Shown here: positions 8,682-44,321 of the stretch, piece by piece | Numbering within the stretch: position 1 is the stretch's first letter | How the letters are laid out: each line of letters starts with the position of its first letter | Assembly: GCA_964368535.1 (NCBI GenBank) | Contig: CAYJBC010000001.1 | Span: 9,800-59,999 of the forward strand | Reading direction: 5' to 3' | Length of the DNA stretch: 50,200 bases | Source: an uncultured Muribaculaceae bacterium | GTDB lineage: Bacteria; Bacillota_I; Bacilli_A; RF39; UBA660 | Notes under the pieces: model-generated | Told to the model about the DNA's origin: nothing | Databases searched by the model: none | The model's input: the letters and a program-made list of their open reading frames with translations, nothing else | Made by a program: the position numbers and the translations under genes

Positions 8682-8722
8682 AATTAATCACCTGTAATTT
8701 ATTATAACTTATAATGAATAAA

Positions 8723-8752: not shown

Positions 8753-8770
8753 TAAGGTGGTGAAATAACT

Positions 8771-9920: not shown

Positions 9921-9964
9921 TTATGAAATATGATTGTATAAATTCTTGTTGTGATTTTCTTTTT

Positions 9965-11014: not shown

Positions 11015-11023
11015 TGTTCCTCC

Positions 11024-11809: not shown

Positions 11810-11825
11810 AAAACCACCTTTACAT

Positions 11826-11853
11826 AAAAAAATGAGATAGATTAGACTCTATC
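11826..11853 (-). terminator. Terminator-like hairpin after the divIVA-like gene
   Basis: Minus strand reads GATAGA-GTCTAA-TCTATC then TCATTTTTTT. The stop codon lies in the loop. Confidence 0.45.
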
Positions 11854-12267
11854 ATCAAATCTTTCTATTTCGTCTAAATGTTCTTCAACCATGTTTCTAA
11901 ATCTTTTCTTAAAAACAAACACTTTTCTCCTTAGACTTTCAGACTCTTCTTCAACTTTTTCTGCTCTTAATAATGCATTATTCACTATTCTAGAAGCATT
12001 CTTCTTTGCATCTTCTACTATCAATTTTGATTCATCAAATGCAGCTCTACGGATATTACTAGTAGATTCTTCTGCTATAAGTATAGCTCTATTAAACGTA
12101 GATTCTAAATTTTTGTATTTAATCATTTCTTTTTCTAGTTCTAAACTTCTTTGATCACTAGCTTTAAGTTTATTTAAAAGTTCTTCATATTCTTTTATAA
12201 CTTCAGCTAAAAAATCATTTACTTCTTTTTTAGAATATCCAGAAAAAGATGTGCTAAACTTTTTCAT
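11842..12267 (-). CDS. DivIVA-domain cell-division protein (DivIVA/GpsB-like, short)
   Basis: 141 aa. N-terminal F..SFSGYSKKEVNDFLAEVIKEYEEL DivIVA motif followed by a coiled coil. Confidence 0.8.
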   Translation of the reverse strand: MKKFSTSFSGYSKKEVNDFLAEVIKEYEELLNKLKASDQRSLELEKEMIKYKNLESTFNRAILIAEESTSNIRRAAFDESKLIVEDAKKNASRIVNNALLRAEKVEEESESLRRKVFVFKKRFRNMVEEHLDEIERFDDRV

Positions 12268-12283
12268 AAACTACTCCTTTACT

Positions 12284-12697
12284 TTACCAATTTAATTCAT
12301 CAGAATTATTATTTTTACTTCCTTTTTCTGCATCTTCAGTGATTTTACCTTGAACGCTAACATTTTTCGGTGCGCAAACATATATGCCTACACCTATTTT
12401 TTGCATAGAGCCACCAATTGAATATATGCATCCACTTAGAAAATCTATAATTCTTTTAGCCTGATCAGAAGTAACTCTTTTTAAATTTACAACCACACTA
12501 TTTCTATTTTTTAAATGATCTGCTATTTGCTGAGCTTCTGAAAATGCTCTAGGTTCAAGCAGAATCATTTTATTACCTGTTTTATCAGCTTCTTTTATAG
12601 CTTCTGCTTCTGACATATTGTAATATTCATCTTCTGTTCCTACTAAATTGTCATCTTCGTCGTCTTTAAATAAGCTTTTTAATTTCTTTAAGGCCAT
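12284..12697 (-). CDS. sepF: Cell division protein SepF
   Basis: 137 aa. ILLEPRAFSEAQQIADHLKNRNSVVVNLKRV...AKRIIDFLSGCIYSIGGSMQKIG matches the SepF core. Confidence 0.85.
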   Translation of the reverse strand: MALKKLKSLFKDDEDDNLVGTEDEYYNMSEAEAIKEADKTGNKMILLEPRAFSEAQQIADHLKNRNSVVVNLKRVTSDQAKRIIDFLSGCIYSIGGSMQKIGVGIYVCAPKNVSVQGKITEDAEKGSKNNNSDELNW

Positions 12698-15020: not shown

Positions 15021-16217
15021 TTATTTAATTATTTGAATAAACTGGTCTAAAGTTGTATAACTCATTATAGTAGATCTAGGTATTTTAAATTTATCTACTC
15101 CAATTGTTGCATTTGTCATACCGCCTCTAAAAGCCATTTCAAAGCCTGCATCTTTCAGTACACTTATTGAATAATCATTGTATTCATAAAATGGATAACA
15201 AAAGGCTGTTGAATTATCAAGTTCTGCTCTACTAAGTGCTAGGTCTTCCATTAATCTATCATAGTCCCAACATTTAATTGCTCCACCTTGTCCTCCTGGA
15301 CATTCTCCTACACCATGCAAATCATGACCATGAGATGCAAATTCAATATATGGACTATAAAATTGTTCTTTATCATACCAACTAGTAATTAAAAACAATG
15401 TTAAATTTATTTCATATTCATCTACTATAGGATACAAAAATTCAGCATACCATCCATCATCAACTGTGATTAGTACAGATTTTTCTGGTAAATTAATTTT
15501 ACCGTCTATAAACATACCTAATTCAGTTGTATTAAGTGTTACATAATTATTGTCCTTAATATAACTAAAATGACTTCTAATTTGAGTTTCAGAATGACAT
15601 ATTACCTGATTACAAGTAGTATCTCCATCTAAATATACAAAATGATATGCTACTACTGGTACATCACTTGCGTAGCTTTCAGTAGTGTTTTCGCTAGGTA
15701 TAACACTTACTTCATCGGATAACGCATAATATAATTTTCCATTATATTCAACATATAGTTTGTCATTGTCTTTGATTATTATAGGTAAACTTATGCTTTC
15801 AGTTAACTTTATAACAAGTTCATCTTCTTCATATAATTTTATTTCGTCACTTTCAATATTTTCATTAAATGGCAAATATCTATCATATTCTTTATCATAA
15901 ATGCTTAGACTTTCTATCTTTGTAACATCCTCATAAAAAACATAATAGTTTTTATCTTCTAGTACAAATTCAAAATAGCCATCATCAGTTTTACTAACTA
16001 ATGTTAGTTCAAAATTTTGTTCTAAAAATCCAATCTTTTCTAAATTTTCATCATATATATCTGCTTTTTTATTTAGTTTCACATAGTCACTATATTTTTC
16101 ATTTATTTCCTTTGTATAATCAATTTCATCTTTTTCTTTATTTATATATTTATAAACAAAAAAAGAAGATGCTGCTATAAAAATTACAATTACAATTATT
16201 ATAAGTATCTTCTTCAT
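15021..16217 (-). CDS. Membrane-anchored polysaccharide deacetylase (NodB-homology domain) with N-terminal repeat region
   Basis: 398 aa. N-terminal TM, VLITVDDGW and SHGHDLH motifs. Confidence 0.7.
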   Translation of the reverse strand: MKKILIIIVIVIFIAASSFFVYKYINKEKDEIDYTKEINEKYSDYVKLNKKADIYDENLEKIGFLEQNFELTLVSKTDDGYFEFVLEDKNYYVFYEDVTKIESLSIYDKEYDRYLPFNENIESDEIKLYEEDELVIKLTESISLPIIIKDNDKLYVEYNGKLYYALSDEVSVIPSENTTESYASDVPVVAYHFVYLDGDTTCNQVICHSETQIRSHFSYIKDNNYVTLNTTELGMFIDGKINLPEKSVLITVDDGWYAEFLYPIVDEYEINLTLFLITSWYDKEQFYSPYIEFASHGHDLHGVGECPGGQGGAIKCWDYDRLMEDLALSRAELDNSTAFCYPFYEYNDYSISVLKDAGFEMAFRGGMTNATIGVDKFKIPRSTIMSYTTLDQFIQIIK

Positions 16218-16229
16218 ATTTTTTTCTCC

Positions 16230-17252
16230 TTATGGAACCATTTTACCTTGTTTGTTAGTTACTATAAATGCATTTGATACATATCTTTCAACATGTCCTG
16301 TAGTAGATGGTGTGTTATAAAGTTCTCCGTTAACTGCTAAAGTTGTTGAACCTCCTCCATCTAAGTTTGCAGCATTATATGCTCCATATCTAACTAGTAT
16401 TTCTATTACTTCATTCATTGATGCACCTATTGAATACCCTGGCTGTCTTCCATCTATTACTAAAAATAATACAATTCCATCTTTTCTTTGTGCGATAACA
16501 GTTCTTGGTGCAATTCCCCATCCGCCATTACCAGCAAGTTCTGCTACTTTACCATTTACTATTAAATTTGGCCCAAATTCAATTGCTTCATCCATTCCAT
16601 TTTCTATAGCTACTTCTGGAGATTCTCCAGTTAAGTAAAGTTTATGATCGTCTGTAAATCCAATTAATTCTCCAGATCCTCCTGGGTATGTCCATATTAA
16701 TTCTTTATCTTTAATAATACTTCCGTATGGTGTTTCACCACTTCCCCAGCCATCAAGATCTTCGAATCCACCACCGTTTATACCAACTAAACCACCATTG
16801 TTTTCAGTCATAGTAGTTGTGTATTCACCGAATGATCCAAGTCTAGAAGATACAGCAATTTCTACATCAGCTGGGTCATATATTGCTACTAACCAACCAA
16901 CATAGTCATCACCTTTTAAATCTATTATTTTATATACTTCATTATTTTCATCTTTTGTATATATTTCTTCTTCATATACTGACTCGTAGTGAGTTTTTTC
17001 TCCTGTACCATTTATTACTATATCATCTAAGTTAACATCTTCAGTTATTGATACAATATAGTTTTGATTCATAACTGAATCAATAGTTTCTTTACTATAA
17101 AAAGTATTAGCAAAGTATTTATGTGTCATTGTAGTCATCGCAGTAGTAATCCAAAATTCTTTAAAAGCTGGAACGTTAATAGTTATAAGACCTGCAATTG
17201 CTATTAGATCAAATACTACAAACATATATGTATACCATTTAAACTTCTTCAT
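16230..17252 (-). CDS. Membrane-anchored phosphodiester glycosidase family protein (NAGPA/DUF2233-like)
   Basis: 340 aa. N-terminal TM, GINGGGFED, RTVIAQRKDGIVLFLVIDGRQPGYSIGASMNE...AANLDGGGSTT. Confidence 0.78.
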   Translation of the reverse strand: MKKFKWYTYMFVVFDLIAIAGLITINVPAFKEFWITTAMTTMTHKYFANTFYSKETIDSVMNQNYIVSITEDVNLDDIVINGTGEKTHYESVYEEEIYTKDENNEVYKIIDLKGDDYVGWLVAIYDPADVEIAVSSRLGSFGEYTTTMTENNGGLVGINGGGFEDLDGWGSGETPYGSIIKDKELIWTYPGGSGELIGFTDDHKLYLTGESPEVAIENGMDEAIEFGPNLIVNGKVAELAGNGGWGIAPRTVIAQRKDGIVLFLVIDGRQPGYSIGASMNEVIEILVRYGAYNAANLDGGGSTTLAVNGELYNTPSTTGHVERYVSNAFIVTNKQGKMVP

Positions 17253-17260
17253 TTTACCAC

Positions 17261-18595
17261 CTATTCTACTACATAAGGGCTGTATTCTGCCCCAACTCCA
17301 CTAGTTATACTTTCTTTATTTATACATATAACTGGAACTACATTTTTAGATTCACTTATTTGTACTTTATTAAGTAATCCTAATTCATTTTTAACAAATG
17401 CTACATCACTTACATGTCCATTATATGTAAGATAGAAAAAATCGCTATTCTCTGTATTTATAAAATCAAATACATTAGGAATTCCTATTTTTGCTATAGT
17501 TTCTTCACTATAAATACTAGTAAAATCATTATTATTATCGTCATTAATTAATCCAGTAGAAAAACTACAATCTACTAATTTATCTTTGTATGGCAAACTA
17601 TTATAATAATCATTATTTAAATAGTAACCAATATTATCTCTTGAATTTATATCATACTTAGTATTTGTATCACCAAAACTTCTTGTATCAGTTAAATTTT
17701 CTGTTTTAGCCATTTTAATAGTTGTATCAGATTCTTCAAATACTCTGAATAAATCTTCTCCAAGTTCAACATAAGTATTTATGTAAGACTCTTCTTCAAT
17801 TTGTATTATATATGGGTTATCCTCTTCACCTTTACCTCTTAATAAAATAACATCTTTATCAAGTTTAATTACAGGTCTTACACCATATGAACCATATGAT
17901 TTATCTGATGATATATTTCCCTTGTCATCTACGTATAAATAATTACCATCATCATCTACTCCAAGTAACCAGTGGAAAGTATCATTATCAAGAAAACTTC
18001 CTTCTCCACCTGCTTTGATATAGTCTTCTGCTGATAATAATGAAATATTTTTTTCTGTTACGATATCAGTATCTGTAAATTCTGAATTTGAGAATTTTTG
18101 AACTATAATATCTTGTTTAATTAAATATTCATCTGAAATAGGCAATAGATTTTCAAATACACCACTGTTTTCTTTTTCAGTTATGTTTAACCAATTATAT
18201 ACATTACTTTCAGTATAACTTAGGTCATTTCCCCACATAAAAGTACTTACATTTGCATCACTTACCAATATTAATTCCTTATCATTTGTAATGCCTACTA
18301 TTCTAAATAATATATTGTTAAAACTAACATAATTATTATCTATTTCTCCTTTAAAAAAATATCCGTCTGTATCTTTATATAATCCGTTACCACTGGTAAC
18401 TAAACTATTTGAATTTATTACTCCTTGAGCTATAGATTTATCATAATTTTGTCTTGCTTCATGTTCTTCTATTGCATAATAAACTGCTCTTGATCCAAAA
18501 TAAATCGCTAATATTGATAACACTACAACACTTATTATATTAAATATTTTTTCTTTCTTTCCTATTTTAATTTTCTCTTTTTTCACCTTCGCCAT
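17261..18595 (-). CDS. Type-II membrane-anchored protein with two copies of the RPV..L...G.G...PY-terminated domain (distant relative of the C-modules of P1-P6)
   Basis: 444 aa. K-rich N-terminus plus a TM. DTDGYFFKGEIDNNYVSFNNILFRIVGI resembles the YYFRG..NNWV.FAG.YWRI motif of P4-P6. The internal sequence GVRPVIKLDKDVILLRGKGEEDNPYIIQ and the C-terminal VVPVICINKESITSGVGAEYSPYVVE resemble the P-family ends. It lacks the P-family N-module. Confidence 0.6.
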   Translation of the reverse strand: MAKVKKEKIKIGKKEKIFNIISVVVLSILAIYFGSRAVYYAIEEHEARQNYDKSIAQGVINSNSLVTSGNGLYKDTDGYFFKGEIDNNYVSFNNILFRIVGITNDKELILVSDANVSTFMWGNDLSYTESNVYNWLNITEKENSGVFENLLPISDEYLIKQDIIVQKFSNSEFTDTDIVTEKNISLLSAEDYIKAGGEGSFLDNDTFHWLLGVDDDGNYLYVDDKGNISSDKSYGSYGVRPVIKLDKDVILLRGKGEEDNPYIIQIEEESYINTYVELGEDLFRVFEESDTTIKMAKTENLTDTRSFGDTNTKYDINSRDNIGYYLNNDYYNSLPYKDKLVDCSFSTGLINDDNNNDFTSIYSEETIAKIGIPNVFDFINTENSDFFYLTYNGHVSDVAFVKNELGLLNKVQISESKNVVPVICINKESITSGVGAEYSPYVVE

Positions 18596-33471: not shown

Positions 33472-34263
33472 TTAAATTTCAAGTAGTTCCCCATCGACAT
33501 ATATTCCGTTGTCTTCTACAGTTACTTCTTCAGCAGTAATGTATACATATTTTTCTTCTATATCTTCATAAATATAAGTAGCTAAATTAGTAGTTATTAC
33601 AAAATAATTTTCTGTTATATACAAATCATTTATATTATATGACCATAAATATTCTAAACCATTATAATCATATATTTTATAGTATTCATCCTCTGTAGAT
33701 ATTATAAATCTATCATTATACGTATATATCTCTTCATATGTGTCAGTAATTGATTCATTTTCATTATTTACTAAATACTGTCCAGAATCATCTTGTACTA
33801 AAAATTCAGTTGCATCCTTTTGCATTATTATATCTTGGTAAACAAAAGGAACTACCACTTTCATTTTATCTAAGTCAAATACTCCATATTTATCACTTAC
33901 AAGTCCAATTAAATATTTTTCAGACAAATTATCATCCAAATATTTTATATCATCTATTGTTGTTATATCATTTCCTGAAACAAAATCATATAAATAATAT
34001 TTATCGTTATCACTTATGAAAGCATAATTACCATAGGTAGCATTAGGGAATTTACAATCTTCACTTTTACATGTGTAAGTTCCTAATAATTCTTCATTGT
34101 TATAAAAATACAGTTTTCCTTCGTATACACTTTTCATTTCTGGATTATCTATGGTACTTATATTAAATATTTTTAAATAAGCACCATAGATTGTCATTAT
34201 ACTAAATATAACTAATAGAACAACTATAATAATATATATTACTTTTTGATTGCTTTTTATCAT
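33472..34263 (-). CDS. Membrane-anchored WG-like (YG-variant) repeat protein
   Basis: 263 aa. N-terminal TM. DKYGVFDLDKMKVVVPFVYQDI resembles KWG/WG repeats. ATGA overlap with the upstream gene. Confidence 0.5.
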   Translation of the reverse strand: MIKSNQKVIYIIIVVLLVIFSIMTIYGAYLKIFNISTIDNPEMKSVYEGKLYFYNNEELLGTYTCKSEDCKFPNATYGNYAFISDNDKYYLYDFVSGNDITTIDDIKYLDDNLSEKYLIGLVSDKYGVFDLDKMKVVVPFVYQDIIMQKDATEFLVQDDSGQYLVNNENESITDTYEEIYTYNDRFIISTEDEYYKIYDYNGLEYLWSYNINDLYITENYFVITTNLATYIYEDIEEKYVYITAEEVTVEDNGIYVDGELLEI

Positions 34264-36320
34264 AGTAAATCGCCATTAGAATCAAAACTATATGTTTGAA
34301 CTACTTTTTTATTAGCGTCTATTAATTCTATTTTAAATCCAGCTGATCCATTGTCTACGAAATTAAAATCATCTGTTGTTACAGTTACTTCTTTAGATAA
34401 TATATTTACTTTACCAGATGTATATTTATATACACCAAGTGTTTTGCCATCTGCCGCTAAAAAGACATTATCACCAAGCATTATTTCTGTAGCAGGGTTA
34501 GATATTATACTGCCATTCATACTGTATACCAAATATTTACCATCACTTGATTTAACTTTGATATATCCATCTACAAAATCTATTACTTCATTTTTAATAC
34601 TTGTAGATGAACCAGTTAATTCTTTGCCGGCAGAATCATATATTTTATATTCTCCATCACTATTTTTAGCAAGATATCCATTATTTAATATTTCTATACT
34701 AGTATATTCAAATGGTATAAATCCTTTAACATCACTACTTGTCATATTAACAATACCATATAACTTTTTACTATTCTGAGCCATTATCAATAAATTACTT
34801 GTAGTAGCTGAAATTATTTGATCTTCACTATTGTAATAGCCAACATCAACTTTAATGTATGTAGCTACATCTTTATTATCTTCTAAGTTATATAATATAA
34901 TATTGTCATTAGCTGATGAAGAGCTAGCATCATTTATAAATACATACTTATTATTATATATTGGTATGTACCCTAATGTATCTTTTGAATTTGTTCTATT
35001 TAATAATTTACTTTCTTTAGCTATAAAACATGTAGTAAATTCAGTTGTTTCTTCAGTTACATTATTTTCATTTTCACACTCATAAGATCCTATAACTTCT
35101 GTTTTATCAGCATCTTGGTAAATATAAATTATTCCATCTATATAATTTATATATTCATATTTAGAATTAATATTAGCTTCGTATGTATTAATACTTTCTT
35201 CTTTATTATCTATTGTAATTTTTAAAAGACCTTCTCCATCTAAAACTATTTTATAGCTTTCTTCACTACTTAGTGTTTTATAACTTTTATCTAGGACTGC
35301 TTCCTTTATGTATTTTTCGCTAGATAATTCGTATCCAATTTCATTAAGTTTATTTCCTATGTGGTTTACAATAAATAGTTTTGAATCAGATACGTATTCT
35401 GCATAGTTACCAGTTATATTTGCATAATCAAAGCTGCCATCTAATACTCTTTCTTTTGTATAATTTATTATATAATAATTAGTAGCTTTTAAGACTATCA
35501 AATTTTCATCATTATAACTAACTATTTGATCTGATATATCTGATACTGCAGATGTTCCATCATTTTTTAACAAGCCATATTTACCATCTTTTTCATAAGA
35601 AATATTTTCTTTGCCATCTAATGATCCTAAGTAAGAATATTCAAAAGGTACTAAATCTACTTTTCCTGTTTCATCGAATGAAATAATCCCAAATAAATCT
35701 TCTTCATTTTGAAGTATTAAAGCACTATCTCCATATTTTTTAGCGGTTTTATATTCACCTAAAATTTCTTCATTTTTTATATCATATAATAATAGTTTCT
35801 TATCTTCATCATTCTCGAAGTCGTAAATAAACACAAAATTATCTTCATAAGTCGGTATACTAAACTCCATTAGATTTCCATCTTCATCATAATATTTTGA
35901 ATTATTTAATACTTCGTCTTGATTATAATAACCAATTAAACATTTTGTTTCATCTTGGTTTTCACATTCATAAGTTCCAAGTTCTTTATCACTCTTATCT
36001 AAAAACACTAATGTTCCATTTTCGTATCTATAGTTATTCATTTCCAGTATAATATCTGGAGTTTCATCAGTTTTTTTATCCTCATCATCCTTAAACACCA
36101 CGAAGTATAAAATTACTCCTGCAATGACTAGAGTGACAAAAATTATCGCAGATATAAAAATTATTTTTTGGTTTTTACTCATTTTTTTAAACCAATTTCT
36201 TTTATTTTTCTTTATTTTTTTGTATTCTTCATGTTCAGATGTAACTTCTTCTATTTCGGCATTTACTATTTCTTCTTCCTCTTTAACTATTTGTTCAATT
36301 TCATTATTATATTCTTCCAT
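34260..36320 (-). CDS. Membrane-anchored WG-like repeat protein with an acidic cytoplasmic N-terminus
   Basis: Start at ATG 36320 (MEEYNNE...), with the SD GAGG inside the 6-codon track extension. E/K-rich N-terminus then a TM. Repeats include DGKYGLLKNDGTSAV, LFGIISFDETGKVDLVPFEYSYL and LYGIVNMTSSDVKGFIPFEYTSI. Confidence 0.5.
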   Translation of the reverse strand: MEEYNNEIEQIVKEEEEIVNAEIEEVTSEHEEYKKIKKNKRNWFKKMSKNQKIIFISAIIFVTLVIAGVILYFVVFKDDEDKKTDETPDIILEMNNYRYENGTLVFLDKSDKELGTYECENQDETKCLIGYYNQDEVLNNSKYYDEDGNLMEFSIPTYEDNFVFIYDFENDEDKKLLLYDIKNEEILGEYKTAKKYGDSALILQNEEDLFGIISFDETGKVDLVPFEYSYLGSLDGKENISYEKDGKYGLLKNDGTSAVSDISDQIVSYNDENLIVLKATNYYIINYTKERVLDGSFDYANITGNYAEYVSDSKLFIVNHIGNKLNEIGYELSSEKYIKEAVLDKSYKTLSSEESYKIVLDGEGLLKITIDNKEESINTYEANINSKYEYINYIDGIIYIYQDADKTEVIGSYECENENNVTEETTEFTTCFIAKESKLLNRTNSKDTLGYIPIYNNKYVFINDASSSSANDNIILYNLEDNKDVATYIKVDVGYYNSEDQIISATTSNLLIMAQNSKKLYGIVNMTSSDVKGFIPFEYTSIEILNNGYLAKNSDGEYKIYDSAGKELTGSSTSIKNEVIDFVDGYIKVKSSDGKYLVYSMNGSIISNPATEIMLGDNVFLAADGKTLGVYKYTSGKVNILSKEVTVTTDDFNFVDNGSAGFKIELIDANKKVVQTYSFDSNGDLL

Positions 36321-36352
36321 ATAGTACCTCACTATCATAATTATATTATCAT
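36321..36352 (-). promoter_or_regulatory. Conserved 32-nt promoter/leader box, copy 1 (WG-like operon)
   Basis: Minus strand reads ATGATAATATAATTATGATAGTGAGGTACTAT followed by ATG. TGaTAATAT looks like an extended -10. ATGATAGTGAGG supplies the SD. Confidence 0.5.
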
Positions 36353-36394
36353 AAAAAAAACAAAAAATAAATATGTTGTCTTACATATTTATTT
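36353..36394 (-). terminator. P5 terminator
   Basis: 12-bp AT-rich stem AAATAAATATGT/ACATATTTATTT (36365-36376 and 36383-36394) with a 6-nt loop. Followed on the minus strand by TTTGTTTTTTTT. Confidence 0.6.
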
Positions 36395-37986
36395 TAATTT
36401 ACAGCATATGGGTCATTCCATGTACCACTTCCAGTTATTCTTACTGTAGGTTTAAGTGCAATGACTGGTCTAATATCTAGAAAGTCATAATTATCACTAC
36501 TAACTGAAATGCTTTTTTGAATAGATACACTGTTCCAGATACTTGATGTTTGTGATAAACCATTTGAATCTTCATACCTTCTAAATCGTTGATTATAATC
36601 AGTATAAGTCCAGTATTCATTATTAGAAGCTATGTGATTTGCAATGTTGTCATCTAGAGCACCTACATATAGTGCTTCATCACCTGTGATGGAGCCAATC
36701 GGATATATCAAAGAGGAATTACCTTTTTCAATATCATTATATGTATTACTTGATTCTTTATTTACACAAACCATAGATGGGGTTTGCGGGTAGCGGCTAG
36801 TGAATGCATAATCTTTTTCAGTACTATAATAATTACCACCACCTGGGGCTACACCACTATGCCAATCTCTAATTTTGTGATTATCGTAACAGTACAAAGC
36901 ATCATTTATATAAGAATCAAAATTTTCCTCAAATATGTATTGAACGTACCATTCTTCTAAAACATTACTTTGGTTTCCGTGTGTTGTTTCTGCAATACTT
37001 GTATCATTTCCGGTTTTATAGATTTTTTCTGACTCTGTTGGTGGTGTAATTCCCGAATACAATAATTTTATTGCCCCGTTACCATCAATTCTTAATATTT
37101 TCCAATAAAATCCAGCAAATGTAAGCCAATTATTTTCTACAGCACCCCTATAAAAATATGTCGTTCCATAATCATCATCCGCTGCATACATACCATTTGC
37201 AATTTCATATCTGCTACTCGGATTACTATCATATTCACTTTGAGTTACAGGTATTTTAGTAACATCAAAAGTTTTGTTTTTTATACTTTGCTCTCCTCCG
37301 TTATCTGCTAATATTTTTCCATATATCGGGTAAGTAAAATGTTCTTTGCTTAAGTAAACTTCTGATTCAAAATTTTTACCCATGTTATTTGATTGATCTG
37401 CATCAAGATTAACAAAAATAACTTCAAAATTCCAGTTTTGTACTGTTGGATTATTTGAATCATTATTAGTAATTGAATAATTTTCTTTTATATTAATTAC
37501 ATCATTATATGTGGTAATATCAAATCCTTTTAATGTGTTTCCATCTACGTCGATTATAGTTTTATACTCCAGACCTTCTAAGAATGTTATTTCTGTATTA
37601 CTAGGATCTATGATTTTTAATAACAATTCTGGAGTATCGTTTCCTTGTGTGTATATAAAATTATTGCTAGAAACGTAGTAATATACGTTATATGTCTGAC
37701 TAGCTGAACCAACTGATTCGCTTGATTTTAAAGTCGCAACTGAGTTCGCTGAGTCTTTTAATGTTCCCTCGGTCATCGAAAAGTTTTCTAACGTCGCGTA
37801 AACATTTACTTTTTCCCCATTAGAAAATGATAAACCTTCAATTTTTTCCGAACCAGAAAACAAACTGGTTTCAGCACCAACTGATGATACTACAAAAAAA
37901 TATGCAAAAGATACCGCTATTGTTATTATACTCAAAATAAGTATACTTAGAAGTATAATGTTTTTTCTAGTCCTACAAAATTTCAT
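36394..37986 (-). CDS. Paralog P5: same N-module plus class-B C-module
   Basis: Start at ATG 37986 (MKFCRTRKNIILL...). Motifs: VSFAYFFVVS, VGSASQTYNVYY, TPELLLKII, GFDITT, VQNWNFEVIFVNLDADQSNN, DDYGTTYFYRGAVENNWLTFAGFYWKILRIDGNGAIKLLYSG. C-terminus IRPVIALKPTVRITGSGTWNDPYAVN. Confidence 0.6.
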   Translation of the reverse strand: MKFCRTRKNIILLSILILSIITIAVSFAYFFVVSSVGAETSLFSGSEKIEGLSFSNGEKVNVYATLENFSMTEGTLKDSANSVATLKSSESVGSASQTYNVYYYVSSNNFIYTQGNDTPELLLKIIDPSNTEITFLEGLEYKTIIDVDGNTLKGFDITTYNDVINIKENYSITNNDSNNPTVQNWNFEVIFVNLDADQSNNMGKNFESEVYLSKEHFTYPIYGKILADNGGEQSIKNKTFDVTKIPVTQSEYDSNPSSRYEIANGMYAADDDYGTTYFYRGAVENNWLTFAGFYWKILRIDGNGAIKLLYSGITPPTESEKIYKTGNDTSIAETTHGNQSNVLEEWYVQYIFEENFDSYINDALYCYDNHKIRDWHSGVAPGGGNYYSTEKDYAFTSRYPQTPSMVCVNKESSNTYNDIEKGNSSLIYPIGSITGDEALYVGALDDNIANHIASNNEYWTYTDYNQRFRRYEDSNGLSQTSSIWNSVSIQKSISVSSDNYDFLDIRPVIALKPTVRITGSGTWNDPYAVN

Positions 37987-38018
37987 ACATATCCTCACTA
38001 TCATATTAATATTATCAT
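37987..38018 (-). promoter_or_regulatory. Conserved 32-nt promoter/leader box, copy 2 (P5)
   Basis: Minus strand reads ATGATAATATTAATATGATAGTGAGGATATGT followed by ATG. Confidence 0.5.
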
Positions 38019-38058
38019 AATTAAATAAAAAAATAAACATGTTAATTTATATATATTT

Positions 38059-39219
38059 TTAATTTACATTATATATATCTCTAGTATATACTTTGTTTAA
38101 CACATCAAGCAGATCATTATTCATTCTATTTGCAATAATCAAATCACTGCTTGTCTTAAACAATTTTAAATTATTGACCAATTTAAACTCTACTGCTTCT
38201 TTTAACAAAGGTTCGTAAACTAAAACATTTATTTTGTTTTTTTGTAACTTCTCTATTATTTTTAATAAAACACTTGATCTAAAATTAACAGAGTCTTTTT
38301 TCATATTTATTCTATAAACCCCAACAGTAGATAAATTCATATTTATTACTCTCTTTACAATGTAGTCAATTCTAGTATCATTTGATGTAGTAATTGAATT
38401 TATAATTCCATCACCTAAGTCTCGAAAATTTCTTGTTAATTCTTCAGTATCTTTAGGTAAACAGTACCCTCCATAACCAAACGATGGATTATTGTAACTG
38501 TTCCCTATTCTTGGATCAAATGCCATTCCGTCAATTATATTTTTTGAATTCATACCTTGTTTTTCTGCTAACATATCTAATTCATTAAAAAATGCTATTC
38601 TCATTGCTAAATATGCATTACTAAACAATTTTATAGCTTCGGCTTCTTTATTTGAAGTATATAAAATGTCTATTTTTTCTTTTAATGCGCATTCCTTTAA
38701 TATGGAAACAAACTTTTGAGCATCTTTATTTTCTCTAGACATTACTATTCTAGAGGGATATAAATTATCATATAATGATTTACTCTCACGTGAAAATTCT
38801 GGAGAAAACATAATTTTATCAGTATCGAATAATTCACACATTTCGTCAGTAAAACCGATTGGAACGGTGGATTTAATTATTATATTTGATGACACATTAA
38901 CTTTATTTATATCAATTAATATTTTTTTGATTGAACTTGTATTTAATTGTTGTTTTTTTAAATCGTAGTCAGTTGGAGTGCATATCACCACATATTCAGC
39001 ATTTTTGTATGCTTCACTTTTATTTAGTGTTGCTTTAATGTTTAAATTTTTATACTCTAAAAAATGTATAATATCATTATCAAGTATAGGAGATATTTTT
39101 TTATTTAATAAATCTACTTTATTTTTGTCTATTTCTAAAATTGTAATTTCATATTTTTGTGATAACAGCACTGCAAGAGATAATCCCACATATCCCATTC
39201 CTACAATTGTTATTTTCAT
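38059..39219 (-). CDS. ugd: UDP-glucose 6-dehydrogenase
   Basis: 386 aa. N-terminal Rossmann motif KITIVGMGYVG and the catalytic-Cys motif FGYGGYCLPKD. The start overlaps the GT2 stop as ATGA. Confidence 0.88.
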   Translation of the reverse strand: MKITIVGMGYVGLSLAVLLSQKYEITILEIDKNKVDLLNKKISPILDNDIIHFLEYKNLNIKATLNKSEAYKNAEYVVICTPTDYDLKKQQLNTSSIKKILIDINKVNVSSNIIIKSTVPIGFTDEMCELFDTDKIMFSPEFSRESKSLYDNLYPSRIVMSRENKDAQKFVSILKECALKEKIDILYTSNKEAEAIKLFSNAYLAMRIAFFNELDMLAEKQGMNSKNIIDGMAFDPRIGNSYNNPSFGYGGYCLPKDTEELTRNFRDLGDGIINSITTSNDTRIDYIVKRVINMNLSTVGVYRINMKKDSVNFRSSVLLKIIEKLQKNKINVLVYEPLLKEAVEFKLVNNLKLFKTSSDLIIANRMNNDLLDVLNKVYTRDIYNVN

Positions 39220-39980
39220 TTTTTGCTCCTTATAATTCTTTTTTTTGTTGCATTGAATGCATAGTGAACAAACACATATATCGAATATATTAAATGTAAT
39301 TTTTCTACTTTTCTATATATATACCACGTTCTTTTTATGGCTTTTAATTTATTTGATGACAATGAATTATTATGTACTCTATAATATGTAAGGCTTCTAG
39401 ATATTCCATAAACATAATCCTCTTTTTTTAATACATTTAGCCAAGTAGCAAAATCTTGTCCTCTTTTTATGTCTGGCATTTTCAATATTTTTTTATTTAT
39501 TTTTTTTATATTAACCATAACTGTTGATGGGCATATAATAGTGTTTTTCAAAAGTTGATTGTAATTTATTTTTTGGGGAATTTTTACTATTTTTTGTGTT
39601 TTATCACCATTTGCTTTGATGAATTCATATCTTGTAAATGTGAAATTTAAATTATTTTTGATCATTATATCTAATTGAGTTTTTAATTTATCTTTGTGCC
39701 ATACATCATCTGCATCTAGAAATGTTATATATTCTCCTGTTGCTTTTTTTAATGCAATATTTCTTGCTTTAGCAACACCCATATTAGTTTTTAAATTAAT
39801 TAAAAATATTTTATCTGTCAAATTTTTTTCTATTATTTTTTTACTGTTGTCAGTTGAGCAATCATTTACAATAATGATTTCAAAATTTTGATAACTTTGA
39901 TTTATAACTGATAATATTGTTTCTTGTATATACTTTTCGTCATTATGTACTGGTATAATTACACTTATTAATTTTTTCAT
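39216..39980 (-). CDS. Family-2 glycosyltransferase (GT-A fold)
   Basis: 254 aa. ISVIIPVHNDEKYIQETILSVINQSYQNFEIIIVNDCSTDNS and the DADD (DxD) motif. No obvious TM. ATGA overlap with the upstream gene. Confidence 0.88.
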   Translation of the reverse strand: MKKLISVIIPVHNDEKYIQETILSVINQSYQNFEIIIVNDCSTDNSKKIIEKNLTDKIFLINLKTNMGVAKARNIALKKATGEYITFLDADDVWHKDKLKTQLDIMIKNNLNFTFTRYEFIKANGDKTQKIVKIPQKINYNQLLKNTIICPSTVMVNIKKINKKILKMPDIKRGQDFATWLNVLKKEDYVYGISRSLTYYRVHNNSLSSNKLKAIKRTWYIYRKVEKLHLIYSIYVFVHYAFNATKKRIIRSKK

Positions 39981-41203
39981 TCTTTTATTTTACCATAAAA
40001 TACTTCTCTGTCCACTAAAATTCCAAGTAACATAAAATATAGCGGAGCAACTTGAATATAAGATATGTTGAATAAAATTTGGATAAAGTAACCTATACAT
40101 GCTAAAAAAACGCAGAAATTATATGGACATTTATTTGTTTTTATTGATTTGTAGTATATAGAGATAGTTAATAGTAAATAAAGTATCAAAGAAAATAATC
40201 CTCTTGTTATCAATATTTGTATAATATCACTATGAGCTTTACTAACATACCTTGGTGGATTAGCTATAAGAATTGGTTCTCCTTTATTTACGAACATAAA
40301 ATTATCTATTCCTAAACCCGTTAGCAAATAATTATCAGCATGTTTAAATGTTTCGGTGTAAATATACCCTCGGTTTGTTCCTACATTAGTGATATTGTTT
40401 ATGTTTTGCCCTGTTTCTGAAGTTTCATTTACTAATTTAACTACCTCTTTAAATAAATTATTATCTAAGAACAACCCTATTATTATAAAAATCATTAGCG
40501 ATATTAAATATAAAATTATTGCCTCTTTAAATTTCTTTTTATATATTACGAACAAAAATATTACTACTAATCCAATTAAACCACTAGTTGATATTGATAT
40601 TAATATAGAAAAAATATAGATTATACAAAAACATAAATGCAAAAGATTTTTTTTTATGCAATATAAACCAATGGATAAACCTGCGCCTAGGATGGAAAAG
40701 CATGCAAATAAATTGCTGTTTAAATATATACTTGAATAAAATTTATCTTCTGGAATTGCAAACCCTAAACCTAAAATTTGGAGTATTAAACAAATGAAAC
40801 TAAATATCCCAACAATCACAAAGGTATATATCAACTTTTTTTTGTAAAATCTACTTAGTGTTGTAGATAATAAAAATATAAAATAGTATGATGACAATGA
40901 TAATATACCTTCATACCATCCTGCCAATCCCCATATAGAAATTTGGGGATTATATGCAAAAATTGTTGTACAAATATTTAATATAATCAATATAAATACA
41001 AATATATCATGTTTTGTTATTTTTTTAACCTTAAATAACATAGCGATTATGTATATTAACAATGCTATTGCTCCTATAAAATATAAGATATAAGAAAAGT
41101 GTTTTAAATCTAATTCGCCTGTTGCTATATAATAATTTAATATTTGAAATAATATTATTACTCCAATGAAAAAAATATATACTATTTTGTTATATATTTT
41201 CAT
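39977..41203 (-). CDS. O-antigen ligase/polymerase family (Wzy_C-like) polytopic membrane protein
   Basis: About 408 aa with 10 or more TM segments. An external loop NRGYIYTETFKHADNYLLTGLGIDNF...SKAHSDIIQILITRGLFSL resembles the R...G.G..F...H(N/S)..LQ...E.G pattern of WaaL/Wzy/PglL-type proteins. The ATG at 41203 overlaps the P6 TGA as ATGA. Confidence 0.72.
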   Translation of the reverse strand: MKIYNKIVYIFFIGVIILFQILNYYIATGELDLKHFSYILYFIGAIALLIYIIAMLFKVKKITKHDIFVFILIILNICTTIFAYNPQISIWGLAGWYEGILSLSSYYFIFLLSTTLSRFYKKKLIYTFVIVGIFSFICLILQILGLGFAIPEDKFYSSIYLNSNLFACFSILGAGLSIGLYCIKKNLLHLCFCIIYIFSILISISTSGLIGLVVIFLFVIYKKKFKEAIILYLISLMIFIIIGLFLDNNLFKEVVKLVNETSETGQNINNITNVGTNRGYIYTETFKHADNYLLTGLGIDNFMFVNKGEPILIANPPRYVSKAHSDIIQILITRGLFSLILYLLLTISIYYKSIKTNKCPYNFCVFLACIGYFIQILFNISYIQVAPLYFMLLGILVDREVFYGKIKE

Positions 41204-42753
41204 ATTGTGCAAACATTCATTGATGGTTCCCCTATTGTATATGGGTCATTCCATTGGCCTGTACCATTAAATGTTATGTTAGATTGTAATGAAACAACTG
41301 GTCTTATATGCAAATTATCTGATATATTGAATTCCGCTATACCCCCAGTATTCGAACTAACACCAGTTAAAAATCCTTTTGTAGGTGAGTTGTAAGACAC
41401 TTCTATTTCCATTGGTGTCATAGTAGTAAAATTAATGCCAGTTCCTAAATAAGTTAACATTACGTCTTCAATTGTAGGCATTCCAACTTTATAAGTAAGT
41501 AAACCATTACCGTTTGTAGTATCTTCTACTGTGAAACTGTCTTCTTTATTTGAACAATTGTAATTAAAGTTTATTGGTCCATTGTTAAATAAATAATATC
41601 CATCAAAATAATGCCAATTCCAAAAACTGCCTGATGTTTCATATATGTACTCTTTATTATTACAATATATTGAATCTGCTATATATTGATCATAGGAATT
41701 TAAATTAGTAGTATACCACTGATCTATTAAATTTTTAGTATCGCTATTTAAATAATTCATTGTATTTAACGTTACTGTAGCGTCTGAAGAATATTTCGAT
41801 TCACCTATGCTGGTTTGAGTCCCATTAATACCTAATTTTTCTGATTCTAATGGGGCTGTTTGACCCGCATATATCATCCTTATAGTTCCATCCCCATTTA
41901 TTCTCAAAATTTGCCAATATAAATCAGCAAACTTAACCCATTTATTCTCTGACTGTGCAACATAAAAATATGATGTTCCGTAATCGTCTGCGGCAGAGTA
42001 CATTTCCTTGAAATTTCCACCAGACATATCTTCATCATTTATATTTATTATATTCGAGCTTCCGCCCTGAGATAATATAATACTTTCACTCGCAGTAATT
42101 GCTCCGGAAGTCAATTTATCTTCTTGTAAAATTAGTGTTGATGATAAAGTTTTACCTTCATTTGCTACCTGATCAGAATTTAAATTCACAAATGTTATAA
42201 TAACTTTCCAGTTTTGAGTAGTACCAATTTCTGAATTAGCTGTCGATATTGCATAGTCTTCTGCAATCTTTACTATACAATTTTTTGTTGTTATATCAAA
42301 TCCTTTTAGCTCTTTTCCTTTAACATCTGTGATACTTTTATAAACTAATCCATCTATGCTTTCTATCTCCGTACCACTAGGATCAATTATAGACAATAAT
42401 ATTTCTGGATTATTGTTATCAATAGTATATTCAAAATCGTTACTATTGATATTAAAATAAACATTATATTTTTCTGTTGCTGAACCCAAAGCAGAATCAG
42501 CGATTAAAGTGGCACTTGACGTTGTCTCAGCCTTGATACTTTCATCTCCTGTACCAAAATTTGTTTGATTAGCTGTTATATTAATCGGTGTTCCTGGTGT
42601 AAAAATAAATTTTTGGGATATCTCACTTTTTAAATCCACATCGGTACTTGCCGGATTAGCTATTGATGCTACAAAATAAGCTAAACTAGTTGTTAAAACT
42701 AAAACACTTCCAATTAATACTGCTAATAAAATTTTTCTTTTATTTAATTTCAT
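41200..42753 (-). CDS. Paralog P6: same N-module plus class-B C-module; first gene of the glycosylation operon
   Basis: Start at ATG 42753 (MKLNKRKILLAVL...). Motifs: TSLAYFVAS, FTPGTPINI, LGSATEKYNVYF, NPEILLSII, GFDITT, TQNWKVIITFVNLNSDQVANEGK, DDYGTSYFYVAQSENKWVKFADLYWQILRINGDGTIRMIYAG. C-terminus IRPVVSLQSNITFNGTGQWNDPYTIG plus an 11-aa tail. Confidence 0.6.
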   Translation of the reverse strand: MKLNKRKILLAVLIGSVLVLTTSLAYFVASIANPASTDVDLKSEISQKFIFTPGTPINITANQTNFGTGDESIKAETTSSATLIADSALGSATEKYNVYFNINSNDFEYTIDNNNPEILLSIIDPSGTEIESIDGLVYKSITDVKGKELKGFDITTKNCIVKIAEDYAISTANSEIGTTQNWKVIITFVNLNSDQVANEGKTLSSTLILQEDKLTSGAITASESIILSQGGSSNIININDEDMSGGNFKEMYSAADDYGTSYFYVAQSENKWVKFADLYWQILRINGDGTIRMIYAGQTAPLESEKLGINGTQTSIGESKYSSDATVTLNTMNYLNSDTKNLIDQWYTTNLNSYDQYIADSIYCNNKEYIYETSGSFWNWHYFDGYYLFNNGPINFNYNCSNKEDSFTVEDTTNGNGLLTYKVGMPTIEDVMLTYLGTGINFTTMTPMEIEVSYNSPTKGFLTGVSSNTGGIAEFNISDNLHIRPVVSLQSNITFNGTGQWNDPYTIGEPSMNVCTI

Positions 42754-42785
42754 ATTATACCTCGCTATCATGATAATTTTATCAT
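42754..42785 (-). promoter_or_regulatory. Conserved 32-nt promoter/leader box, copy 3 (P6 operon)
   Basis: Minus strand reads ATGATAAAATTATCATGATAGCGAGGTATAAT followed by ATG. TGaTAAAAT looks like an extended -10. This copy also contains the palindrome ATGATAA-AA-TTATCAT. Confidence 0.5.
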
Positions 42786-42825
42786 AAAATAATAGAAAAA
42801 TATATATTATTATTTGCTTTTATTC

Positions 42826-42856
42826 AAATAAAAAAATTGATTTTACAATCAATTTA
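42826..42856 (-). terminator. pyk rho-independent terminator
   Basis: 9-bp stem AAATTGATT/AATCAATTT (42834-42842 and 42847-42855) with a 4-nt loop. Followed on the minus strand by TTTTATTTG. The stop codon is in the stem. Confidence 0.65.
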
Positions 42857-44266
42857 TTTTATAATTTCTATTTTCATTAAATTTGTTGGTTTAATTTCCT
42901 TAGTATTTGGGAAATTACCAGTCGTAACTACTATGTCTCCACTTTGTAATTTCATTGTTTCTTTTGCTTTATTTAAACTTTCCGAAAGAATTTCATCAGT
43001 TGAATTACATACTTTTAGAGTTGCTGGATATACTCCCCAGTTAAGAGCAAGTCTTCTTCCAACTTTTTCATCTGTAGTAAGTGCAAGAATAATAGATTTT
43101 GGCTTTAAATTACTAATCATTCTTGCAGTTGAACCACTCATAGTAGTTGCACAAATTAAATTAGCATTTAGTCTATTAGCACTTGATACAACAGATTCAG
43201 CAATTGATGTTGGAATATCCATAACTTTATTTGTATTTGTTATATAATCGAAATCTGCATAATTTTCAGCAGTAGCACAAATATTAGCCATAGCTCTAAC
43301 AGTTTCAACTGGATGTTTACCAATTGTAGTTTCTCCTGAAAGCATAACGGCATCTGTTCCATCAAATACTGCATTTGCTATATCAGCAGTTTCTGCTCTT
43401 TTAGGTCTGGAATTTTCCATCATTGTTTCAAGCATTTCAGTTGCAACAATTGCAATTTTTCCTTTTTCTCTTGCTTTTTGTATCATTTGTTTTTGAACTA
43501 TTGGTAGCATTTCAGATGGTATTTCAGTACCTAAATCACCACGAGCAATCATTATACCTGCAGACTCTTCTAAAATTCCGTCTAAATCATCTATACCTAG
43601 TTGACTTTCAATCTTACAAATTATTTGCAAGTCTTCTCTTCCATGTTCTTTAATAATTTCCTTAATTTCTAAAACATCTTCTTTACTTGATACAAATGAT
43701 ATAGCTAAAAACTCTCCGCCATTTTCACAAGCATACTTAATATCTTCACGATCAATATCACTTACATATGGAATATCAAGTTTAATTCCTGGAGCACTCA
43801 TTGATTTCTTATTACCTAGTGTACCACCATTTATAATAGTACATGTAACACCATCTTCTTCTTTACTAATAACTTCTAATTTCATTTTAGCATTTTCTAA
43901 TAGAATAATGTCTCCTATTTTTAAACTATCAATTGCTCTAGAATGATTTACTGAAAATCTTTCTTCATTTCCTAAAACTTCTTCTTTAACTATTCTTATA
44001 GTTTTTCCTGCAACTAATATAATTTGTCCTGTTTCAGTCATTCCACTTCTAAATTCTGGGCCTTTAGTATCCCATAAAAGTGCAATATTTTCCCCTGTAA
44101 TTTTTCTTACTTCACGGACTGCATCTGTTGCTTCTTTTCTTTCTTCTTTTGTAGCATGAGTGAAATTTACTCTGGCAACATTCATACCAGCTTTAACCAT
44201 CTCAGTCATAACCTCTACTTTATTACTAGCAGGTCCTATACTACATATTATTTTTGTTTTTTTCAT
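42854..44266 (-). CDS. pyk: Pyruvate kinase
   Basis: Start at ATG 44266 (MKKTKIICSIGPAS). Motifs: NFTHA, DTKGPEFR, MIARGDLG, ATEMLETM. The track ORF is extended by 15 codons. Confidence 0.95.
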   Translation of the reverse strand: MKKTKIICSIGPASNKVEVMTEMVKAGMNVARVNFTHATKEERKEATDAVREVRKITGENIALLWDTKGPEFRSGMTETGQIILVAGKTIRIVKEEVLGNEERFSVNHSRAIDSLKIGDIILLENAKMKLEVISKEEDGVTCTIINGGTLGNKKSMSAPGIKLDIPYVSDIDREDIKYACENGGEFLAISFVSSKEDVLEIKEIIKEHGREDLQIICKIESQLGIDDLDGILEESAGIMIARGDLGTEIPSEMLPIVQKQMIQKAREKGKIAIVATEMLETMMENSRPKRAETADIANAVFDGTDAVMLSGETTIGKHPVETVRAMANICATAENYADFDYITNTNKVMDIPTSIAESVVSSANRLNANLICATTMSGSTARMISNLKPKSIILALTTDEKVGRRLALNWGVYPATLKVCNSTDEILSESLNKAKETMKLQSGDIVVTTGNFPNTKEIKPTNLMKIEIIK

Positions 44267-44292
44267 ACTATACTTCCCTTCAAACCTTACGT

Positions 44293-44321
44293 ATTTTATC
44301 ATAACATGCATTTAATTGCAA
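44293..44321 (-). promoter_or_regulatory. Candidate sigma-A promoter of pyk
   Basis: Minus strand reads TTGCAA (44321-44316), a 17-nt spacer ending TGa, then TAAAAT (44298-44293). Confidence 0.55.

Follow-up and report, generated by a model that had tools for sequence, protein, structure and literature searches.

In Gram-negative bacteria, adjacency to the substrate gene is an accepted predictor of protein O-oligosaccharyltransferases: 21 of 31 PglL homologs adjoin pilins, and the prediction has been confirmed for ComP (PMC3643930). PglL and the O-antigen ligase WaaL each contain an essential Arg and an essential His in a large external loop (PMC3643930). Closest to the locus described here are TfpO (PilO) and TfpM of Pseudomonas, Acinetobacter and Moraxella, a size class of 420-470 amino acids (aa) that carries a Wzy_C domain only and lacks the PglL-specific domains (PMC12645811, PMC9829042), and whose members glycosylate the pilin encoded just upstream of them, at a C-terminal Ser/Thr that follows the pilin disulfide loop (PMC9829042). 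We have analysed a 50,200-nucleotide (nt) stretch of contig CAYJBC010000001.1 (assembly GCA_964368535.1; the window), in which the gene of a predicted surface protein, P6, is followed by genes for a Wzy_C membrane protein, a GT2 glycosyltransferase and a UDP-glucose 6-dehydrogenase (Ugd). We suggest, tentatively and at slightly less than even confidence, that this operon may be a dedicated protein O-glycosylation cassette for P6, in which a TfpO/TfpM-like enzyme would use a lipid-linked glycan containing glucuronic acid (GlcA).

The gene order on the minus strand is pyk (42854-44311), P6, Wzy_C, GT2, Ugd and then P5, a paralog of P6 (Table 1). As the first-pass annotation of this DNA had stated, the four genes from P6 to Ugd are joined by three ATGA stop/start overlaps, at 41200-41203 between P6 and Wzy_C (ACA ATA TGA / ATG AAA), at 39977-39980 between Wzy_C and GT2 (GAA TGA / ATG AAA) and at 39216-39219 between GT2 and Ugd (AAA TGA / ATG AAA). 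Counted from open reading frame (ORF) coordinates, an overlap of 4 nt occurs at four of the roughly 31 same-strand junctions of the window, and three of these four lie within the operon. The start codon earlier given to P6, at 42771, has to be revised, since the ATG at 42753 is preceded by GAGG and is the likelier start. P5 probably begins at 37986, which leaves a spacing of 72 nt behind Ugd, and a terminator scan detected no terminator between the two genes. The G+C content of the three glycan genes is 0.22-0.25 (window positions 38001-41000) as against 0.28-0.31 in the flanking P genes and pyk, the window as a whole being at about 27%; this lower content is consistent with a swappable cassette.

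The Wzy_C protein is assigned to its family by Pfam (PF04932; 53 bits, the cut-off being 31.7; E = 4.4e-14; match to positions 2-149 of the 149 in the profile). Its hydropathy profile has about 10 segments, and roughly 10-12 membrane helices are predicted. In a Foldseek search the AlphaFold2 (AF2) model (pLDDT 87.6, pTM 0.90) had one significant match in the PDB, WaaL 7TPG (E = 1.2e-6, TM 0.61-0.62, probability 1.00), which the sequence profile also matches (E = 3.7e-10) and with which the AHN motif aligns. R278 and H324, the latter in the motif KAHxD/E, are invariant in 16 relatives and sited in the large external loop; judged against R288/H338 of E. coli WaaL and R298/H349 of PglL, we infer by position only that they are equivalent to the published catalytic residues. 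Pfam score, polytopic WaaL fold and Arg/His pair all place the protein in the O-antigen ligase/Wzy_C superfamily. It is not of the PglL/PglS type, being 408 aa long and free of flanking domains: PF04932 was the sole match in a Pfam scan at E <= 0.01, PglL_A and Wzy_C_2 being absent. PglL and PglS share with it the Wzy_C domain and the conserved Arg/His, and are likewise frequently adjacent to substrate genes (PMC3643930, PMC12645811), but they are Gram-negative enzymes of 550-600 aa that carry PglL_A and Wzy_C_2 domains and act on internal sequons. NCBIfam yielded a weak match to TIGR03097 only (21 bits against a cut-off of 188), and close relatives are few (8 matches with the protein, 28 with its profile). 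The comparison of profile models and structures that had been put forward for telling a ligase from a polymerase proves non-discriminating, given that neither PglL-specific domain is there and that WaaL 7TPG is the only family member matched in the PDB.

The likeness to TfpO/TfpM thus lies in architecture and gene context. Here as there, an enzyme of similar size (408 versus 420-470 aa) with Wzy_C as its only domain has its gene directly behind that of a secreted, membrane-anchored protein and in the same orientation, and the glycan genes are swappable; the candidate acceptor in the tail of P6, a penultimate Ser/Thr beside a Cys, recalls the C-terminal acceptors of that class. The systems differ in that the present host is a monoderm Firmicute and that the sugar genes, GT2 and Ugd, lie in the same operon. 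Likeness in sequence is weak and runs via the shared Wzy_C domain alone, the two having been compared by description and not by direct alignment. We therefore describe the Wzy_C protein as working like the TfpO/TfpM class and do not call it a member: 'like' is chosen over 'belonging to' because the gene context is that of the class, whereas the neighbouring protein is not a pilin.

What might distinguish this arrangement from a repeat-unit polymerase and its sugar genes can be approached by comparison with a congener (L001, GCA_964371705.1), whose pyk, lysS and bPH protein are 90%, 83% and 87% identical to those of the window. There, a Wzy_C gene 43% identical to ours is followed after 44 nt by the P6 ortholog, P0010, so that the putative substrate gene lies downstream of the enzyme gene and not upstream as in the TfpO/TfpM order; the gene order is inverted relative to the window and the cassette lies on the opposite side of pyk. 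Its sugar genes comprise a GT2, a DegT aminotransferase, an ATP-grasp enzyme, a split GT2, another GT2 and a DAO-family gene, and a TuaG-like GT2 with Ugd is missing from them. Of the four-gene linkage, then, the pairing of Wzy_C with a P6 ortholog is kept, whereas the order, the side of pyk and every sugar gene are not. Wzy polymerases are expected to track their repeat unit. Such co-variation is not seen between window and congener (one genome pair), and because the Wzy_C gene keeps its place beside the P6 ortholog when other glycan genes take over, it behaves as an acceptor-specific ligase would, unlike a polymerase specific for one repeat unit. At a contig end of a third relative, L011, a P gene, a GT2 gene and a Wzy_C gene follow one another in this order; among about 150 P-family ORFs in the best 80 of 579 loci, it is the only one with a Wzy_C neighbour beyond the window and L001, which were both fetched separately. 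The GT2 gene just upstream of Wzy_C in L001 (L001:9082-9916) is split into ORFs of 160 and 112 aa, and its homolog in L011 (L011:11487-12305) is intact at 272 aa; the split may reflect a frameshift, a pseudogene or phase variation.

A feature of P6 itself points in the same direction. All-against-all BLASTP confirmed that the window encodes six P paralogs (P1-P6), as had been proposed. The P family is large and wholly uncharacterised, with 3773 representatives at E <= 1e-3 and 579 tblastn-confirmed relatives in species-representative genomes; in the best 80 of these 579 loci, most records are titled uncultured Bacilli, Tenericutes or CAG metagenome-assembled genomes. P6 consists of an N-terminal transmembrane helix, a beta-sandwich N-domain common to all six paralogs and a DUF6273-like (C-type-lectin-like) C-domain. 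It has a single hydrophobic segment (residues 8-26), and its AF2 model (pLDDT 85.5) begins with a helix at residues 2-38; Ser, Thr and Asn account for 9.9%, 10.4% and 9.9% of residues. The top structural matches of the model are DUF6273 phage proteins (E = 4.7e-4, probability 1.00; TM 0.56 for the second match). Although a Pfam scan of P6 gave no match to any family, N_methyl included, P2 (26.8 bits) and P3 (26.1 bits) pass the DUF6273 cut-off (PF19789, 23.5 bits), of which P1 and P4 fall short, so that the P family can be placed in DUF6273 by Pfam for P2 and P3 and by structure for P6. DUF6273 has been described as a C-type-lectin-like receptor-binding domain (PMC10743442). These models lead us to regard the P proteins as variable surface proteins of a lectin-like kind that are anchored at the N-terminus. 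Homology of P6 to pilins or TasA is not claimed, since its model has no significant match in the PDB (best E = 3.6e-3; probability only 0.75 for the TasA fibre), and we reject a role as chain-length regulator on account of the single transmembrane helix, the beta-rich domains and the massive expansion of a variable family.

Within this family, P6 belongs to a subfamily of four, together with its L001 ortholog P0010, P0011 and P0154, that is marked by an extra Cys in the N-domain (C165 in P6, ORF numbering; motif K-N/K-C-[IVL][IVL]-K/N-IAE) and by a C-terminal extension of 9-11 residues ending [VA]-C-[ST]-I. Both features occur in 3 of 53 aligned family members (P6, P0010 and P0011) and neither occurs in the other 50; among 31 further relatives, P0154 has both and the other 30 are without. 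The tail is not a by-product of the gene overlap, because it is kept in L001, where it does not overlap the start of Wzy_C. Since the two Cys appear as a pair, a disulfide that pins the tail is suggested, and one may speculate that the tail Cys is bonded to the equally subfamily-specific Cys165. P1-P5 have neither tail nor extra Cys, which leaves the idea that the other paralogs in the window are glycosylated as well unsupported; other tail-bearing paralogs would perhaps be substrates along with P6.

Is the position of the Wzy_C gene behind a surface-protein gene peculiar to this operon? When metagenomes were scanned with the Wzy_C alignment, 78 loci with 25-36% identity came up, and no P gene lies in any of them. 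N_methyl-type pilin-like proteins are encoded immediately upstream of Wzy_C in L087, L091, L096, L097, L114, L124, L128 and L131. In the first four, the upstream protein has 333-603 aa and starts like a type IV pilin, as Pfam N_methyl matches bear out for L087 and L091. In L114, L124 and L131 a pilin of 118-126 aa comes first, then Wzy_C, and after it a GT2 of 314 aa and a protein of the GtrA family (supported by Pfam in L124). Type IV pilus operons enclose the Wzy_C gene in L128 (L128:3134-16105), where it directly follows the major pilin, and in L139 (L139:998-8063), where it follows the prepilin peptidase; PilC (L128), the pilin and PilD (L139) were confirmed by Pfam, and PilB, PilT and PilM/N/O were read from order and size. 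These two operons suggest, from their gene content, pilin glycosylation in monoderms, and in the literature collection that we searched we came across no account of enzymes of this kind in pilus operons of Gram-positive bacteria. In L091 there are two triads in tandem, each with genes for a surface protein, Wzy_C and a TuaG-like GT2. In L088 (L088:1130-9278), two Wzy_C genes are interleaved, with gaps of 20 and 22 nt, in an array of four uncharacterised secreted paralogs that end in NPETLPxVND, a hydrophobic segment and a basic tail, resembling a sortase signal; no glycosyltransferase was found among the 10 Pfam-scanned genes around this pair (226-12358). In a rough neighbour-joining tree of 79 Wzy_C proteins (no support values), the two L088 genes form the sister group of the window/L001 pair, and in about 17 of 25 informative loci of the window's clade, by a hand tally with no formal control, a secreted or anchored protein is encoded directly upstream. 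This wider tendency of Wzy_C genes to come after genes for pilins or surface proteins in low-G+C bacteria may outweigh the single operon. We take the P family and these pilin-like proteins for analogous neighbours and claim no homology between them, as a profile comparison aligns only the terminal (I/V)RP(V/L) motif, non-significantly.

Two further groups of loci deserve mention in their own right. The unit L124:4767-7954, to which those in L114 and L131 are similar, resembles a Gtr-type polyprenyl-phosphate sugar system in which Wzy_C replaces the usual GT-C transferase, the GT2 beside GtrA in L124 being GtrB-like. In L121, L125, L129, L133, L137, L147, L148, L149, L152 and L155, a set of apparently marine origin (several have marine or Tara contig names, and the G+C content of L133 is about 39%), proteins of very large size (up to >1900 aa) are encoded 25-26 nt upstream of the Wzy_C homolog. 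Their C-terminal sequence, ...KNPxTDxRKxxxGHVTL[LI]R, looks like a sorting domain of type IX secretion.

The sugar genes of the operon point elsewhere. The GT2 (PF00535, E = 1e-40) has as its best NCBIfam match TuaG (NF047683), over the full length and with 290 bits (E = 1.5e-86), which is below the 400-bit cut-off, and Ugd contains three UDPG_MGDP_dh domains and passes TIGR03026 (303 bits against 189.8; PRK15057, 448 bits). The operon thus holds the pairing of TuaG-like and TuaD-like genes expected of teichuronic-acid-type synthesis. That the GT2 might instead be a GtrB-like polyprenyl-phosphate sugar synthase is unlikely in view of the full-length TuaG match, the lack of a GtrA gene and a hydropathy profile with no membrane segment. 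TuaE, TuaG and TuaD of B. subtilis, and SscD of S. aureus, provide the precedent of the same three activities together in a Firmicute, with a Wzy_C protein of about 410 aa (PMC11841062). By comparison, the window has no counterparts of TuaA (priming), TuaB (flippase), TuaF (chain-length regulator), TuaC or TuaH, its GT2 stays below the TuaG cut-off, and its operon starts with a surface-protein gene in stop/start overlap. As had been noted on first inspection, a flippase, a priming transferase and a chain-length regulator are missing from the window: Pfam scans that covered 36 of 39 ORFs with 150 aa or more gave no match to any of them (lysS was left unscanned, and ORFs 13-993 and 2061-2639 are without any match), and none is present in the congener cassette, so that the co-location of these genes that is typical of Wzx/Wzy loci is seen in neither.

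Other Firmicute Wzy_C proteins illustrate how varied the acceptors of this superfamily can be. WsaB and WsfB, the S-layer O-oligosaccharyltransferases of Geobacillus and Paenibacillus, are likewise Firmicute Wzy_C enzymes predicted to glycosylate a surface protein and have clustered glycan genes (PMC2943079); their clusters differ by full export and initiation sets, TPR motifs (in WsfB or the adjacent WsaA) and an S-layer target, none of which is seen here. TacL of S. pneumoniae, a 397-aa Wzy_C protein in a monoderm, is a ligase and not a polymerase (PMC5727136), and it differs, in a comparison by description and not by sequence, in using a glycolipid acceptor and in having no linkage to a surface-protein gene. 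The argument that a monoderm without lipopolysaccharide must use such an enzyme on a protein is accordingly invalid, as Firmicute Wzy_C proteins have been read as wall-polymer polymerases (TuaE, SscD; PMC11841062), as a lipoteichoic-acid ligase (TacL; PMC5727136) and as S-layer enzymes (PMC2943079).

How might the operon products act on P6? In the scenario that we envision, Ugd would make UDP-glucuronic acid, as its family membership implies, and on the inner side of the membrane the TuaG-like GT2 would extend an undecaprenyl-diphosphate-linked primer by a sugar, probably GlcA. Genes for the flippase and the priming transferase would lie elsewhere, because they are absent from the window. At the outer face, the WaaL-fold Wzy_C protein, with Arg278 and His324 in its large external loop, would move the lipid-linked glycan onto P6, an N-terminally membrane-anchored surface protein with a lectin-like DUF6273-type head. 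The candidate acceptor, and this is speculative, would be the subfamily-specific C-terminal tail ...V-C-T-I, whose Cys is perhaps tied to Cys165 by a disulfide. The ATGA overlaps would provide for coupled and co-localised synthesis of the substrate and its enzymes, as with pilA-tfpO.

Several observations weigh against a P6 glycosylation cassette. P6 is not a pilin: N_methyl and the G-F-T-L-I-E motif are lacking, and it is a two-domain protein of 517 aa with a DUF6273 lectin-like head, unlike the substrates of TfpO and TfpM. The Thr/Ser of its tail is penultimate and not C-terminal as is the TfpO/TfpM acceptor, and with TfpO, glycosylation was blocked once the acceptor Ser was followed by extra residues (PMC9829042). 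P0154 (L164:8001-9713, ending ...SVCTI), a second tail-bearing paralog of the congener, sits beside rpsP with no Wzy_C gene in the surrounding 14.3 kb; tail and Wzy_C adjacency are therefore not strictly coupled, although one enzyme might serve two tail-bearing substrates. The linkage is carried by two to three genomes only. The pyk region of the congener holds two Wzy_C genes and many glycosyltransferases, and P6 could be a passenger, because this region looks like a variable glycan island. About 19 loci pair a Wzy_C relative with an ortholog of the TuaG-like GT2 (42-52% identical). Behind the Wzy_C/GT2 pair, L087 encodes a radical-SAM enzyme, an epimerase, two more GT2, a protein of 500 aa that is weakly Wzx-like, and Ugd, and in L105 and L109 a Wzx-like 502-aa protein, judged as such from sequence only, is encoded directly upstream, so that some Wzy_C/GT2 loci (L087, L105 and L109) combine a Wzx-like flippase with several glycosyltransferases, as Wzx/Wzy polysaccharide loci do. 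The lack of a flippase and of a priming transferase in the window, finally, counts against it too.

Much of this would be accommodated if the Wzy_C protein were a TuaE/SscD-type polymerase, or the ligase of the pathway, for a GlcA-containing, teichuronic-acid-like wall glycopolymer, an alternative that the first-pass annotation had raised and that is still live in view of the resemblance of GT2 and Ugd to TuaG and TuaD and of the Wzy_C/GT2 pairs beside Wzx-like flippases; we regard it as rather unlikely, if by no means negligible. Ugd would then supply UDP-GlcA, the TuaG-like GT2 would assemble a short repeat unit with undecaprenyl diphosphate as its carrier, a flippase, a priming enzyme and an LCP ligase would be encoded elsewhere, and P6 would be a mere neighbour in a variable surface island or a binder of the polymer via its lectin-like domain. 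With a TuaE-like Wzy_C protein, the full-length TuaG match and the TuaD-like Ugd amount to three of the eight tua activities, which could yield a disaccharide polymer with GlcA if the priming enzyme and the flippase were shared. In Firmicutes, a Wzy_C protein of about 410 aa is usually taken to be a polymerase, as are TuaE and SscD (PMC11841062), and both the roughly 19 loci with a Wzy_C/GT2 pair (Wzx-like genes in L087, L105 and L109) and the abundance of glycosyltransferases around pyk in the congener would fit. Yet a polymerase should not remain with the P6 ortholog when every sugar gene around it has been replaced, and neither the window scan nor the congener cassette revealed Wzx, a priming transferase or a chain-length regulator. 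Its relatives would also have to be explained inside type IV pilus operons and, in the sister clade, among the surface-protein genes of L088, where 0 of 10 scanned genes is a glycosyltransferase, and the P6 stop/start overlap and the subfamily tail would be left without a reason.

A ligase need not act on a protein. The Wzy_C protein might take a GlcA-containing chain off undecaprenyl diphosphate and place it on a membrane glycolipid, in the manner of TacL in building pneumococcal lipoteichoic acid (397 aa, Wzy_C; PMC5727136), or on another envelope polymer, which would surround or retain the membrane-anchored P proteins. The WaaL fold, the conserved Arg/His pair and the tolerance of ligases for varied glycans, which suits the exchange of sugar genes in the congener, are compatible with such an activity; we nonetheless think it improbable, as no teichoic-acid or glycolipid-anchor genes lie nearby and as it explains neither the regular position of the relatives after pilin and surface-protein genes nor the P6 tail. 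Adjacency might, in turn, carry no shared function at all, if numerous P genes and glycan genes simply accumulate beside pyk and the ATGA overlaps reflect compact packing. Six P paralogs in a 50-kb window, 3773 representatives of the family, a tail-bearing P0154 away from any Wzy_C gene and a promoter box that also precedes an unrelated 692-aa gene (see below) would fit such a coincidence. Chance seems to us a poor candidate all the same, because among the roughly 150 P-family ORFs of the best 80 of 579 loci only L011 adds a Wzy_C neighbour to those of the window and L001, because the P neighbour visible in these two belongs to the rare tail-bearing subfamily, and because three consecutive ATGA junctions are unusual for the window. 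For the dedicated P6 glycosylation module, as originally proposed, the linkage in the congener, the Cys/tail subfamily and the relatives behind pilin and secreted-protein genes thus stand on one side, and the likeness to TuaG/TuaD and the Wzx-flanked relatives on the other.

The regulatory setting of the operon is only partly as first annotated, that is, preceded by a conserved promoter/leader box and the pyk terminator. The 32-nt box TTATGATAAWATTAWYATGATAGYGAGGWATA is present in three copies in the window where 0 are expected by chance, before P6, before P5, which directly follows the operon with a copy of its own, and before the 692-aa gene (Table 1). At the end of pyk there is a weak hairpin only (-7 kcal/mol, z = -2.0), which a consensus terminator scan did not call. 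No copy of the box turned up before P1-P4; this absence, together with the copy before the unrelated 692-aa gene, indicates that it is not paralog-specific, and what it marks is a set of transcription units for surface proteins, irrespective of paralogy. Neither an Rfam nor a tRNA scan of the window gave a match, and the box is therefore explained by no known riboswitch or leader RNA. The 692-aa protein (34260-36338) is N-terminally anchored, belongs to no Pfam family and shares an ATGA overlap with a 263-aa weak paralog (33472-34263). Because each unit has a copy of the box, P6, P5 and the 692-aa/263-aa pair may be co-regulated surface genes.

Table 1. Features of the P6 operon and its surroundings (positions in the window)
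Feature	Position	Strand	Basis or remark
P6	41200..42753	-	517 aa, ORF from ATG at 42753
P6 C-terminal tail GEPSMNVCTI, putative acceptor or recognition site	41203..41232	-	extension confined to the subfamily, last residues [VA]-C-[ST]-I
Wzy_C / O-antigen-ligase-family polytopic membrane protein, proposed glycan transferase	39977..41203	-	408 aa from ATG
GT2 glycosyltransferase, TuaG-like	39216..39980	-	254 aa
UDP-glucose 6-dehydrogenase (Ugd)	38059..39219	-	386 aa
P5, paralog without tail or extra Cys	36394..37986	-	ORF, BLASTP, family alignment
Promoter/leader box before P6, with TATGATAAAAT -10-like element and GAGG ribosome-binding site	42756..42787	-	3 copies in window
Second box copy, before P5	37989..38020	-	repeat search of window
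Third box copy, before 692-aa gene	36323-36354	-	repeat search of window
Weak AT-rich terminator-like hairpin, overlapping pyk stop codon	42830..42855	-	9-bp stem + U7

The window also contains SpoIIP and YqfD genes, and since these support such a placement, we take the host, an uncultured bacterium of the gut, to be an endospore-forming Firmicute. The closest relatives (L001, L006-L015) are deposited as 'uncultured Muribaculaceae'; L001 and L011 have a G+C content of 25-28%, the housekeeping proteins of L001 are 79-90% identical to those of the window with its SpoIIP and YqfD, and spore-coat genes are present in relatives (YlbD_coat in L002, CotE in L164). The Muribaculaceae label of these records looks wrong. 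Elsewhere in the window, at 15021-18595 on the minus strand, a 444-aa protein with a weak match to the P-family C-domain (17261-18595), an NAGPA phosphodiester glycosidase (16230-17252) and a polysaccharide deacetylase (15021-16217) are encoded in a row, which may be another envelope-glycan-related cluster.

From a broader perspective, the operon and its distant relatives may be members of an undescribed class of target-adjacent protein O-oligosaccharyltransferases in monoderm Firmicutes, in which a small WaaL-fold Wzy_C protein, often accompanied by a TuaG-like GT2, would be encoded directly behind its substrate gene; its substrates would be type IV pilins in Gram-positive operons, pilin-like or sortase-anchored paralogs or, in the present case, a DUF6273 protein modified via a disulfide-pinned ...C-[ST]-I tail. 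We put this forward, class and substrates together, as a possibility that is more doubtful than not. To our knowledge, dedicated O-oligosaccharyltransferases encoded beside their substrates (TfpO, TfpM and PglS) are known only from Gram-negative bacteria. These three are workhorses of bioconjugate vaccine production, and a Gram-positive counterpart would offer glycoengineering a new acceptor tag (...C-T/S-I) and new enzymes. If, instead, the operon makes a minimal teichuronic-acid-like polymer, it would be an ordinary wall-polymer operon with an unusual neighbour. The main value of the finding is therefore that of a testable lead. Should a dedicated glycosylation cassette be borne out, the joint variation of glycan genes and surface-protein paralogs beside pyk would be explained, a Gram-positive counterpart of the TfpO/TfpM systems would demonstrate the glycosylation of variable adhesins and pili in uncultured Firmicutes of gut and rumen, and the proposed class, if real, would mean that these bacteria routinely decorate such adhesins with swappable glycans.

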